Positions 20,360 to 64,000 of a stretch of 64,000 bases of DNA are shown here, piece by piece. This DNA is from Eledone cirrhosa. Lineage: Eukaryota. Under the pieces are notes generated by a model. The model had not been told where the DNA came from. It saw only the letters and a list, made by a program, of their open reading frames with translations, and did no database searches. Position numbers and translations under genes: made by a program. The first letter of the stretch is position 1. Each line of letters begins with the position of its first letter. The stretch covers positions 25,606,001-25,670,000 of the forward strand of contig OZ024760.1 in NCBI GenBank assembly GCA_964016885.1. Reading direction: 5' to 3'.

Positions 20360-20394
<35 letters not shown>

Positions 20395-20652
20395 ATATTA
20401 ATAAATGGAAACTATATTTATAAAACCATAATTATATTATTACATATATATCAAGGACAACCAAGGCAAATTATGGTGCGCTTTCATCAGATAAAATACA
20501 GATTTGTTTTATAAATAAATAAATATTGACATACCCGGAGAAAAAAACAACCTTAACGGTTGGAGCTTCCTCAACTAAACTGTTGAGTGCTTTATATCAG
20601 TTATAAAAATGTTTAAGCTTGTTGAATCCCAACAAATTAAATATAACCTTTG
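20395..20652. mobile_element. Inverted HHR-region fragment joined to direct 3' end (relative of 11688-12140)
   Basis: tcatcagataaaata at 20484-20498; ttgagtgcttt at ~20583. Confidence 0.6.
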
Positions 20653-20669
20653 TATATATATATATATAT

Positions 20670-21705: not shown

Positions 21706-22027
21706 AAAAAACTATATATATATATATATATATTGTTATACTTTGGGAGGGTCATGTTGCCAATAAGAAACACGCAAATTCAGAAAAGAAATATATATAT
21801 ATAATATGGAAAACGAAGAAACAGTGATCCATCGGAACAATTTATTACGTATTACAATTGTTTCCCTGCACCTCTTCGCCGGAGAAACAATTGTAATACG
21901 TATTCTTCGTTTTCCATATTATTCTACTCTGCTCCGAAGGAGCATAGAGTGCTCAACCGGCATACCGCCTATGGACGCATCCAAACAACCTTACTACAAA
22001 TATATACACATATATATATATATACGA

Positions 22028-22305
22028 TATTAACAAATGGAAACTCTATTTATAAAACCATATTTATGTCATTATACATATTTCAAGGATATCAAGTTAA
22101 ATTATGGTATGCCTTCATCAGACAAAATACAATATATATTAGTTTTACAAATAAGCATTGACGTACCCTTTCAAAATGCGACCGTTACTTTTGGAGGACA
22201 TCAGGATAGTTAATATCGTATATCTACTCCAAATACTTGTCGAGTGCTTTATATCAGTTATAAAAATATTTACTTGTTGGATCCCAACATTTTAAATAGA
22301 ACTTT

Positions 22306-22308
<3 letters not shown>
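22028..22308. mobile_element. Inverted HHR (minus 22065-22129) joined to direct 3' end
   Basis: Reverse complement: tattttgt-CTGATGA-agg...cctt-GAAA-tatgta-TA-atgacata; tcgagtgcttt at ~22240. Confidence 0.7.
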
Positions 22309-22380
<72 letters not shown>

Positions 22381-26320: not shown

Positions 26321-26464
26321 CAAACAAAGTTGGTGTGGTAAGATACCCGATGGACCATAACGCACCTGAGTACTCGATACTTAGGGTTGTAGAGTGGGTA
26401 ATAGGAAAAGATTCAGGACTTCGACGTCAGGGTCCTGAATCTTTTCCTATTTATATATATATAT

Positions 26465-26898
26465 ATAATATATAAGATCAAAAGATGGTTAAAAGAGTTC
26501 CATGTATTTTATTATGCGCATTTCAAAAACAAATATCATCATGCAATAACATTTGCGTTTTCGTCAGATAAAATAGGGAGACATGATATGAAGGTTAAAA
26601 TACACTTGTGAATAGTGCAGTTTTAAATCAACATATCAATATGTTGATTTAAAACTGCACTATTCACAAGTGTATTTTAACCTTCATATCATGTCTCCCT
26701 ATTTTATCTGACGAAAACGCAAATGTTATTGCATGATGATATTTGTTTTTGAAATGCGCATAATAAAATACATGGAACTCTTTTAACCATCTTTTGATCT
26801 TATATATTATTTATACTCCAGTCCTACAAACTGTAGAGTGCTTCTTATCCGATATCTGCATTGCTTTATTGTACTACAATAAAACTCACCTCCTACAT
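26465..26898. mobile_element. Near-perfect fold-back palindrome (~170-bp arms) with canonical type I HHR on both strands, plus 3' end
   Basis: Plus 26700-26770: tattttat-CTGACGA-aaacgcaaat/atttgttttt-GAAA-tgcgca-TA-ataaaata; mirror 26505-26575; tagagtgct at 26833-26841. Confidence 0.85.
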
Positions 26899-27389
26899 TA
26901 TATATATATATATATTAGTAGGAGTAGTGGATTTAGAGTGGCGGTTTTGGCTAGTTACCTTTTATTCTTCCACTAATAAACTGACCATCTATTGAGTACT
27001 TTTATGTTCTATGGTCTTCTCGGTCCCAGTATCGCAGACTACCAATATATATATATATAATAAACCAAATTATTATAATACTCTGGATAAATATATATCG
27101 TCGAGTGCTTGACATGTTATATAAAAAATCAGCTGATTATAAATCAACTGACACTTTTTCATTGAACAATATATGTATATATATATATATATATATTGTT
27201 ATACTTTGGGAGGGTCATGTTGCCAATAAGAAACACACGCACCAGTTGCTTTCACTTCAATTTATTATATATTTATAAATTTATAAATTTACAAATCTAC
27301 AAACTTATAAATTTCTGGTTGGTTGGTTGGTTCCACAACCAGATGGTTGTTTATATATATATATATATATATAGATATAGATATATAGT

Positions 27390-48089: not shown

Positions 48090-48646
48090 TCATGGTCGGG
48101 TCGTTGGCGACTAAACTGGCAACCCCACCAAGGTTTCCTGGTGAGGAGGGTGACTATGGACATTCTGCAGGAATAAAAACAAAACCTGTCAAAGGGCAAA
48201 GGAGCTCTTAAGAGTCAATGGCCATCCAAAATCACCGGGAGAGATGACCCCTTAGCCTTTGTCAAGGCAGAATTCTAGGAGAAGGAAAACTCTGATATAA
48301 CACCTGCAACCCTGATGGTATCCAATGATGTTGACTTGTTCTTCTTTTTGGTAAATATCATTTTGGTTAAGAGAGTGGGACTGGCTTTGTGCAGTGCCTT
48401 TGCTCACTATAAAAGCTTCACGGCACAGGCATTGCTTTATATCTGGAGATCTCTCTGCACTTGTCGTCACATGGTACCATGGGTCCAGCACTATGTGTCA
48501 ATAATTGTCACAGGTGTAGTGTTTGTACCAGAGTTTTCAAGTCGCTGGCTGGACTAAAAAGTCACACTCGTTCAGTGCATCGGTAGGGGTTCTCCTATAT
48601 GGATATAAAGTAGTGGCCGTACTCGAAAACGAGTTGGCAGCCATCA
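48090..48646 (+). mobile_element. Second, 5'-shorter copy of the bipartite RTE derivative
   Basis: Highly similar to 46928-47484. Confidence 0.8.
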
Positions 48647-48895: not shown

Positions 48896-48898
<3 letters not shown>

Positions 48899-49625
48899 GG
48901 AGGTGAATTTTATTGTAGTACAATAAAGCAATGCAGATATCGGATAAGTAGCACTCTACAGTTTGTAGGACTGGAGTATAAATAATATATAAGATTAAAA
49001 GATGGTTAAAAGAGTTCCAAGTATTTTATTATGCGCATTTCAAAAACAAATATCATCATGCGAAGACATTTGCGTTTTCGTCAGATAAAATAGGGAGACA
49101 TGATATGAAGGTTAAAAAACACTTGTGAATAGTGCAGTTTTAAATCAACATATGAAAAGTAGTTTTAGATTTATGTGTGATATTGGGAAAATATCACATA
49201 TTATTAAACCCTTCAATATACAAACCTTAATTTAACATTATTCTAAAATTGTTCTCTTCGTTAATTTTCAAATTCTTTTAATTCATATATTTATCTTCCA
49301 ACGGTTTTTTAACCTCTCTATGTAAAACAATATACTTTTCTCAGTTATAAAAGCTATCTGTCTCTCTCTCTCTATCACCCATCTCTCCTCCTATCTCATC
49401 CTTCCTTATTATACCCCTCCCCATCCATTCTTTACTCTCATCTCCTCCTCTTTTTCATCCTTTCCACCCCCCACCCCTCAATTTTTTCCCAATATCACAC
49501 ATCAATCTAAAACTACTTTTCATATGTTGATTTAAAACTGAACTATTCGCAAGTGTTTTTTAACCTTCATATCATGTCTCCCTATTTTATCTGACGAAAA
49601 CGCAAATGTCTTCGCATGATGATAT
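48896..49625. mobile_element. 'tgcgca'-HHR family: inverted full pLTR-like arm, ~290-bp spacer, direct partial arm
   Basis: Minus HHR 49022-49092; 49486-49625 is the reverse complement of ~49050-49190. Confidence 0.8.
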
Positions 49626-60790: not shown

Positions 60791-61582
60791 ATTCCAAATG
60801 ATAAATAAATATATAAATAGGCACACACACATGCACGCATGCACGCACGCACGCGCGCACATAAGGCATGCGCAAACCAAATACACACCACATAACACAA
60901 AAACAATATGGTGTAGGACAGGACTAAGGGGGTGGGGGGTCACAAATTAACATTCATTCACTGAGGAGGTCACAGAATGTATGACGAAAGATCTTGGACA
61001 ATAAATAAACAGCCATCCGGTTATTGAACCAGCCAACCGGAAATTTATAATAATTTGAAGTAAAACCAACAGGTGCGCGTGTTTTTATTGGCAGCATGAC
61101 CCTCCCAAAGTATAACTACACATATATCTCACGTCGAACTTTCTTACCCTTTTTCCCATATAAAGCATGAAACTAATAAGACTTTTTGTGCCTTTATTTT
61201 GCACAGATACACACACTTACACATACACATACACACAGACACACACATATGTATTTTGATAATTTGGCTGGTGATAACAGTATTTAAAATTGAATGACAA
61301 TGCAGCACCGCAGATAGCGATCTTTAGACACGTCGAGCCAATGAAACATGTGTTAATACTTGGAATAAACCCTATTGTACAGCTGATCCCTGTTATTCTT
61401 TAGCCCTTTATTAATACTTCAGGAACAGCTTACCTAGGAACTGTCTGGAATCGGCCACTCCAACACCAAAACTAGGTAAACATATTGTTGAGTCAAACAA
61501 CAGTTAATGTTAGACTCAACCACTGTACAGATTACTCAGAAGCTCTAATTGGATTGCCTTAAACGATACCTCGTTAACTTAA

Positions 61583-63157: not shown

Positions 63158-63450
63158 TCTTTTATCTGTTCCAGTCATCCGACTGAGGCCACGCTGGGGC
63201 ACCGCCCTTGTTGCTACATATTCTTTCTCCAGCCTGTGTTGGTTGGCCATTGGTCCAAGACGGAGTTCGTTGCTGCTGCCCTTGGGTTTCCTTCGTACCG
63301 TGCTGTGGGCTCATCCGGGATCCTGGATAGCAGAGTGACGAGATGTTTCTTGAAAACCTCCACGTCTACAGCATGCAGATCTCTCAGATACCTCGGCAGC
63401 TTGTTGAAGAGTTGAGGGCCTTTGAAACCCAGGCTATCGGAATATCTGCT

Positions 63451-63452
<2 letters not shown>
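63158..63452 (-). mobile_element. 3' end of a CR1/L2-group LINE (ORF2 C-terminus and 3' UTR)
   Basis: SLGFKGPQLFNKLPRYLRDL...FKKHLVTLLSRIPDEP...AATNS; tail ggcggtgccccagcgtggcc..gactggaacagataaaag. Confidence 0.75.
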
Positions 63453-63497
<45 letters not shown>

Positions 63498-63506
<9 letters not shown>

Positions 63507-63918
63507 AGATCAAAAGATGGTTAAAGGAGTTCAATATATTTTATTATGCGCATTTCAAAAACAAACATCATCAAACAATAATATTTGTGTTTTCATCAGA
63601 TAAAACAGGAGAACATGATATGAAGGCTAAAAAAACACTTGTTGATAGTGCAGTTTTAAATCAACATATGTTGATTTAAAACTGCACTATCAACAAGTGT
63701 TTTTTAGCCTTCATATCATGTTCTCCTGTTTTATCTGATGAAAACACAAATATTATTGTTTGATGATGTTTGTTTTTGAAATGCGCATAATAAAATATAT
63801 TGAACTCCTTTAACCATCTTTTGATCTTATATTATGCATACTCCAGTCCCACATACTGTAGAGTGCTTCTTATCCGATATCTGCATTGCTTTATTGTACT
63901 ACAATAAAACTCACCTCC

Positions 63919-63922
<4 letters not shown>
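63498..63922. mobile_element. Near-perfect fold-back palindrome (centre caacat|atgttg, 63667/63668) with canonical HHR on both strands, plus 3' end
   Basis: Plus 63727-63797 CTGATGA...GAAA-tgcgca-TA; mirror 63537-63607; same family as 26465-26898. Confidence 0.85.
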
Positions 63923-63949
<27 letters not shown>

Positions 63950-64000
63950 CAAAAAAAAGAAATAGGACGAAGGTAAACAGTTACAAAAGGATTTAATCCA

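Follow-up and report, generated by a model that had tools for sequence, protein, structure and literature searches.

How does a retroelement insertion come to consist of two copies of one of its ends, joined head to head at a fixed base? This question is raised by an insertion at 63.5 kb of the window, the 64,000-nucleotide stretch of Eledone cirrhosa DNA analysed here, which belongs to a microsatellite-rich host genome of 3.0 Gb. The insertion is a perfect palindrome centred on CATATG, whose arms overlap at 63666-63669 and differ only by one T in a homopolymer. It turns around at the A of ATATGTTG, hereafter termed S, and only one of its arms carries a tail. The features of this insertion and of two others of the same family in the window are listed in Table 1.

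Table 1. Coordinates, strand and character of the family A insertions in the window.
Feature	Position	Strand	Remark
Inverted tail-less pLTR arm, 63.5-kb copy	63498..63669	-	Runs from S to ~81-86 nt before the element 3' end; outer edge merges indistinctly with (TA)n
Tailed pLTR arm, 63.5-kb copy	63666..63923	+	From S (A of ATATGTTG, 63666) to the element 3' end (63921, then AT)
Junction palindrome CATATG	63665..63670	.	S site; parent context initiator-like TTTTC|A; putative RNA 5' end
Type I hammerhead motif, tailed arm	63729..63795	+	Core 63735-63789; predicted cut after TA
Second hammerhead motif, inverted arm	63539..63605	-	Core 63545-63599
One-sided tail, ~86 nt	63836..63923	+	Lies between two putative RT start sites; opens with a bulged hairpin
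(TA)n target, left flank of 63.5-kb copy	63456..63500	.	
(TA)n target, right flank of 63.5-kb copy	63922..63949	.	
26.5-kb insertion, tail-less inverted arm ending at S	26462..26636	-	Older subfamily
26.5-kb insertion, tailed arm from S	26639..26899	+	Two extra letters (26637-26638) separate the arms
49-kb insertion, tailed arm	48896..49194	-	Passes through S into the 3' UTR
49-kb insertion, tail-less arm	49195..49625	+	Longer 5' side (49195-49480 unpaired 3' UTR)

A first-pass annotation had proposed that the 63.5-kb and 26.5-kb copies are independent insertions that fold back at the same base and whose left arms stop internally. All of these points were borne out. The turn lies at the same base in both copies, with two letters extra at 26.5 kb, and the left arms end 81-86 nt short of the end of the right arm, where they abut (TA)n. 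The two copies are ~89% identical, and a blastn comparison of the 63.5-kb flanks (2 kb on the left, 50 nt on the right) with the 2-kb flanks of the 26.5-kb copy gave no match. A segmental duplication of the two loci was thus rejected. The 49-kb copy had been presented as the parent that reads on; it does pass S, but it is itself two-armed, a point that had been overlooked, and its unpaired middle belongs to the tail-less arm. That arm terminates early, at (TA)n, within hammerhead stem II.

The target of the 63.5-kb insertion is the TA tail of the sequence at 63160-63455, which we take, from its resemblance, to be a LINE-like 3' fragment. Another repeat fragment that ends in a TA run occurs both at 48200-48645 of the window and in the upstream flank of locus L025, beside family A insertions at two loci. 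TA-tailed repeats may therefore be suppliers of insertion targets.

On sequence grounds, the repeat represents the pLTR, the end with the hammerhead, of a Hydra-clade Penelope-like retroelement (PLE), here called family A, inserted in (TA)n. A tandem locus (L103) yielded a 3,673-bp unit composed of leader, ORF, 3' UTR and pLTR. The single ORF comprises a reverse transcriptase (RT) together with a GIY-YIG endonuclease (EN) at the C terminus, as judged from motifs read by eye: FDIxxYY, YRDDG and a C-terminal IYxC..YFG region are found in intact 3' frames of 650 aa (L031) and 634 aa (L118). The L103 unit further contains the N-terminal RW motif and the DKG motif in its DKT form (RRLRWT, HSDKT), and the linker and EN motifs read CNCRIKNKC, CNLC..E and N..CLH. 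A Pfam search of the ORF matched no family, and its 328 homologues have as their best named member a hypothetical protein of Argonauta hians (35% identity), which hints at a mollusc-like context. Since the RW, DKT, CxCx5C, CxxC and CxH motifs (the latter two around the EN), together with the pLTR hammerhead and the (TA)n target, match those listed for the EN+ PLEs of the Hydra clade (Craig et al. 2021, PMC8557442), we assigned the element to that clade, a placement made by motifs. The TA flanks, the partial tandems and the inverted 5'-truncated copy with a one-sided tail likewise correspond to the insertion architecture reported for EN+ PLEs. In PLEs, an inverted pLTR with a tail on one side is a standard arrangement (PMC8557442, PMC3846280) and in itself already known. 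On the other hand, the unit of 3.7 kb exceeds the size general in the Hydra clade (<3 kb), the tail of ~86 nt exceeds the 30-40 bp given there, and neither a family of thousands of copies nor a fixed 5' turn-around is described in the available passages of PMC8557442.

The hammerhead motif at 63.5 kb consists of stem I (TTTTAT/ATAAAA), the core CTGATGA..GAAA and a palindromic stem III (TGCGCA). A descriptor of this motif matched 65 of 90 sampled arms, 63 of them with the full 6-bp stem I. An Rfam search of 63300-64000 gave no hammerhead match, probably because stem II is long, and its hairpin-shaped miRNA matches fell below threshold and were rejected. Folding of the pLTR monomer did not predict an unaided hammerhead shape. 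A repeat search over the whole window was swamped by microsatellites; genome-wide, a 46-mer taken from the tail finds 8,738 exact matches. The 3' ends were uninformative: ATT is present there in 12 of 53 short copies and in 11 of 32 long ones.

Several further observations concern the family itself. In L118 (2048-3949), an Asn-rich insert of ~60 aa, which family B described below does not have, lies between the RT thumb and the linker and resembles the N-rich inserts of rotifer Penelopes (PMC3846280). L031 and L032 are very young multi-kilobase palindromes; the arms of L032 are 99.9% identical across a 4.1-kb span, and L031 is flanked by a TA-rich array of ~2.9 kb. Contigs from four sequencing runs of one study span the pLTR, though such contigs do not reveal where transcripts start. 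At position 1274 of L103, many of these contigs depart from the pLTR just after the hammerhead with another continuation, which suggests from the sequences a related non-autonomous family with the same 5' part as the pLTR.

The turn at S recurs throughout the genome. At 2,025 loci, two arms meet at S no more than 30 nt apart, and the reversed control pattern has no occurrence; the excess is far above chance. The stronger TGCGCA palindrome serves as the turn at 78 loci, 26-fold fewer, though nearly every arm passes it; the pattern used for TGCGCA overlooks the youngest subfamily. Moreover, the A of ATATGTTG is the exact end of 5,457 arms, whose next base is not that of the parent, and 5,602 arms (up to 1 mismatch) read through S. 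Thus, about half of the arms that reach S stop there, before the perfect palindromes are added. Among 58 inverted loci, 10 have an arm that stops at S and a partner joined at an unrelated position, revealing that the stop is independent of the palindrome. Short palindromes do act as joining microhomology, and 19 of 49 sampled junctions are perfect palindromes. None of five sampled matches reading from the pLTR into the ORF begins at S, which counts against the reading proposed below.

The high copy number, the uniform size of ~425-435 nt and the TA target could also suit a MITE-like or fold-back unit that is mobile as one piece, or an artefactual fold-back in the assembly. A mobile unit of this kind would have symmetric terminal inverted repeats and an inherited junction. 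Instead, the tail is one-sided, 21 different junction inserts occur among the 49 loci, the flanks are not mirrored, and the same alleles are present in long copies bearing the ORF. This explanation is therefore disfavoured and appears highly improbable.

The junctions listed for contig C1 show an additional feature at the stop: in ~14 of 100, the last 8 nt of the cDNA are repeated head to tail one to three times, in full or only begun, and in 1 of the 100 the repeat is followed by read-through. These repeats could represent a telomerase-like realignment of the RT or templated insertion of the polymerase-theta type.

The relationship between the two arms was examined through their variants. The variants described as private to each locus in the first-pass annotation proved to be subfamily alleles: apart from a homopolymer gap, 14 other loci are 100% identical to the 63.5-kb arm, and a 56-mer with the 26.5-kb variants occurs 35 times at 28 loci. 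The CTGATGA/CTGACGA difference is a variable position of the hammerhead core. At subfamily-diagnostic positions, 880 of 895 arm pairs agree, where ~357 discordant pairs would be expected at random. Truly private variants were scored in 57 loci (the 49 junction loci minus 4 with a broken arm, plus 10 loci matching the 63.5-kb arm and the 2 window copies); 8 are shared by both arms and 49 are unshared. Given this agreement at diagnostic sites and the mostly unshared private variants, the arms were similar at birth and diverged later. Both arms derive from one source sequence, and the concordance fits a single RNA or two RNAs of the same source alike. Gene conversion, formerly offered as an alternative cause of the likeness, is dispensable and was rejected as the main cause on the same 49 to 8 count.

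The geometry of the arms follows a simple rule. Among the 49 loci, chosen by their junction alone, 45 pair a tailed with a tail-less arm, none has two tailed or two tail-less arms, and 4 have one arm cut elsewhere. A second sample was anchored on the tail and comprised the first 90 of 100 listed tail matches on contig C1; the samples were drawn from a single contig, within its first 100 Mb, and one compound insertion contributed a few of the matches. Of these 90 matches, 58 are accompanied by an inverted tail-less arm, 14 have no inversion, 5 read into the leader, 9 extend beyond the fetched DNA, 3 are tailed at both ends and 1 is unclassified. Within the 58 inverted loci, the tail-less arm exceeds its partner in length in 23, falls short of it in 7 and differs from it by no more than 25 nt in 28 (p = 0.005), a count in which L066 was kept among the 7 although it is symmetric on inspection. 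In 8 of the 58, the tailed arm measures only 48-97 nt and is nearly devoid of the sequence of the inverted arm.

These proportions bear directly on snap-back self-priming, in which the first cDNA folds at a short palindrome and copies itself into the inverted arm. This route had been favoured for the window copies, and self-priming at palindromes was also proposed for PLEs on the basis of head-to-head inverted pLTRs, junction palindromes and an optional tail (Arkhipova et al. 2013, PMC3846280), all of which are seen here. The 19 perfect palindromes among 49 junctions and the concordant arms agree with it; about half of the listed TGCGCA turns are likewise perfect palindromes, and symmetric ATAT-CATG-ATAT junctions fit a brief fold-back onto CATATCATG. 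However, a copied arm should never extend beyond its template, yet the tail-less arm does so in 23 of 30 asymmetric loci in family A and in 12 of 15 in family B, so that it is not a snap-back copy of the tailed arm. The eight tailed arms of at most 97 nt cannot template their partners, a perfect palindrome would demand a loop of 0-4 nt, and the stop is kept both when joined to unrelated positions and in family B, where no palindrome is present. The arm-length bias thus speaks against self-priming in general, and as a general route it is largely refuted and improbable. What stands of the earlier claim is that the junction formed at insertion and that the arms come from one source sequence; the snap-back of the tailed arm fails.

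Palindromes are prone to deletion. Symmetric palindromes could hence have formed first, by any route, and become asymmetric through later central deletion, with one tail trimmed by the endonuclease; the tail has indeed been suggested to result from EN-mediated resolution (PMC8557442). A later central deletion should favour neither arm, and the biases of 23:7 and 12:3 are left unexplained by it. In addition, very young copies with identical arm alleles already have many different geometries. Later deletion therefore seems a poor candidate. Meanwhile, the letters at the junction vary even among copies with identical arms.

The pairing of a tailed and a tail-less arm agrees with two cDNAs, one primed from each target strand, that start at two fixed sites. 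The lengths of the tailed arms in the 58 loci show no pile-up at exactly -86 that would betray a collision of the two, just the 8 arms of 48-97 nt.

A second Hydra family (family B), found by using a database homologue as query, has an RT 64% identical in DNA to that of family A, carries the motifs RRIRWR and KSDKT, and is represented by 4,052 tail matches. A first candidate for its stop was rejected, as it gave 21 scattered fold-backs. The stop was identified afterwards, from the sample itself: the 5' ends cluster within ~15 nt of TTTTC|ACTG, ~280 nt from the 3' end. Starts near this site account for 17 of the 34 inverted arms found among 70 tail-anchored matches, and for 14 of the 70 tailed arms. 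The A of TTTTC|ACTG is the exact stop of 23 of the first 100 arms in one subfamily, by a hand count in which some rows stem repeatedly from one locus and the read-through class includes 7 rows whose upstream sequence is variant. The tail-less arm is longer in 12 and shorter in 3 of the completely seen pairs among the 70 matches (p = 0.035), a comparison that omits 8 matches whose longer inverted arm runs beyond the fetched DNA, with 21 of the 70 too long to classify. The stop site of family B is not palindromic, while nearby quasi-palindromes serve in joining. The proposal that a short palindrome sets the turn is accordingly right in that the turn site is fixed and wrong about its determinant, as the TGCGCA counts also indicate.

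Family B also contains three intact ORFs in direct tandem on contig C7 (L213-L215), at a spacing of 4,011 bp, which is a candidate source type for long copies. Within the window, 22017-22310 holds a family-B-like two-armed insertion in (TA)n, with a hammerhead in its tail-less inverted arm and a tailed arm of ~100 nt, and shows the asymmetry of family A.

A 5' boundary at a single base is therefore present in both families. Both stops lie in an initiator-like TTTTC|A, resembling the general initiator consensus, after a pyrimidine-rich tract, upstream of the hammerhead and ~260-280 nt from the 3' end. An internal TATA-less promoter places the start of the Penelope transcript within the upstream pLTR (PMC2377424), and a TCACT in a rotifer pLTR has been called Inr-like (PMC3846280). 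Given this context in both families and the position of the Penelope start, S is likely to be the 5' end, that is the transcription start, of the element RNA.

An alternative is that two-site priming is correct but that S marks a site of strong RT pausing or of RNA processing instead of a capped start. In its favour, about half of the arms pass S seamlessly, and the excess of a cap-like base seen in family A is absent in family B. On the other hand, both families stop in the same initiator-like context at a similar distance from the 3' end, longer T runs elsewhere in the pLTR cause no comparable stop, and the predicted minimum free energy fold of the pLTR-leader RNA is no better than that of shuffled sequences, with no stable fold at S (z = -0.11). 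A 7-bp hairpin near the end of the cDNA was also rejected as the cause: it is limited to the youngest subfamily and cannot account for a stop common to all subfamilies. We consider a pause or processing site unlikely.

The cap-like signal itself is equivocal. Among the first 100 arms of family A (hand count), the cDNA strand continues after the stop with C in 41, A in 44 and T in 15, and in the 90-match sample the sense strand at the stop reads G 15 times and A and T 5 times each. Untemplated G derived from the cap is found at the 5' ends of full-length L1 and SVA copies (PMC3287187), whereas the extra G here is confined to family A; family B has C at 3 of 23 stops. By hand count, 74 of 100 such C's in family A are followed by A, a pattern equally explained by local templated slippage or by a brief snap-back to CATATCATG, 36 nt downstream. 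Because of this and of the family B count, we treat the cap-like G as a lead.

Taken together, we propose that the palindromes are made at insertion from two reverse transcripts, primed on the two strands of one cut (TA)n at two fixed RNA sites ~86 nt apart, which run off at the likely transcription start and are joined head to head. We place the probability of this reading at roughly 0.6 and rank it above self-priming. It is supported by the identity of the element, the rule of one tailed and one tail-less arm, the length bias, the single-base stop in two families and the varied junction letters. The RNA would start at TTTTC|A within the upstream pLTR, and the endonuclease would nick both target strands. 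One DNA end would prime at the end of the tail and the other ~86 nt upstream, probably on the same RNA. The downstream cDNA would often stall near the second primer, giving the short tailed arms, and would otherwise displace that primer. The cDNAs begun at the pLTR-leader junction would reach the RNA 5' end after ~259 and ~175 nt; their ends may then anneal via ATAT or other microhomology, with small insertions added. Longer arms could be copied from templates that extend farther upstream, for example tandem units.

The biochemistry of the Poseidon protein PAc permits two-site priming and thereby makes the two-cDNA reading compatible with a known activity (Frangieh et al. 2024, PMC11167929). 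For that protein, RNA from the start of the ORF is required; it nicks both strands of an AT-rich target and extends both, and in vitro it initiates at two internal RNA sites that delimit the tail. However, it belongs to another clade, the start site in vitro is the same for both strands, so that one arm of each kind is not predicted by that alone, and in the available passages the two sites are not linked to the two arms of one insertion and run-off palindromes are not described. In LINE-1 twin priming (PMC2837659), two target-primed cDNAs are also joined in an inversion, but the second site is variable and the inversion is accompanied by deletion, whereas here the site is fixed and the arms mostly duplicate each other. 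Inversion is, unlike in LINE-1, the majority outcome (58 of 90).

The formation of the inverted repeats and tails of PLEs is stated as open in the parts available of PMC8557442 and PMC11167929. A fixed 5' stop read as a transcription start was not found in the papers available on PLE twin priming, strong-stop DNA and promoters, and it is absent from the available passages of a 2026 retrozyme preprint. PLEs are the sister group of telomerase, and the thousands of young insertions in this genome allow geometry to discriminate between the models, against self-priming and for two-site priming, and point to one base per family as the RNA start. If the reading is true, PLE promoters could be mapped with DNA alone from pile-ups of junctions, and hairpin-forming loci of ~430 bp, numbering in the thousands, would be run-off products and not MITEs.

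The start sites may also bear on how long copies arise. In family A, a hairpin of -8.4 kcal/mol is predicted after the inner site, and the leader contains a weak one of -3.8 kcal/mol after the outer site. If this weaker hairpin is required, initiation would take place at pLTR-leader junctions, and a transcript from the upstream pLTR would yield mainly short run-off cDNAs. Long copies would then need tandem templates or a jump to the 3' pLTR, which is speculation.

LTR retroelements make minus-strand strong-stop DNA, a short cDNA of fixed length that runs off at the RNA 5' end within the terminal repeat. A tentative and rather unlikely extension of our reading is that Hydra-clade PLEs make DNA of a similar kind, with two starts at the pLTR-leader junction, close to the 5' end of the RNA, and run-off at the cap, the cap being sometimes copied and 8-nt repeats added in the manner of telomerase, after which the short cDNAs are either joined as palindromes or jump to the 3' pLTR to give long copies. 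The cDNA here, unlike that of LTR elements, would be target-primed, made twice and integrated, with neither tRNA primer nor integrase, and strand transfer is hypothetical. If true, PLEs would possess a strand-transfer step like that of LTR elements, and the regeneration of the pLTR would be explained.

Two-armed insertions with hammerheads are not confined to these two families in the window. Single copies of related families lie at 20390-20655 and 11690-12040, and the 11.7-kb insertion turns where the sense arm starts with ACTG, as at the family B stop. A loose pattern scan also revealed hammerhead-like cores (CTGANGA..GAAA) at 9356, 39288, 53769 and 62248 on the minus strand and at 60961 on the plus strand, some of which may be due to chance.
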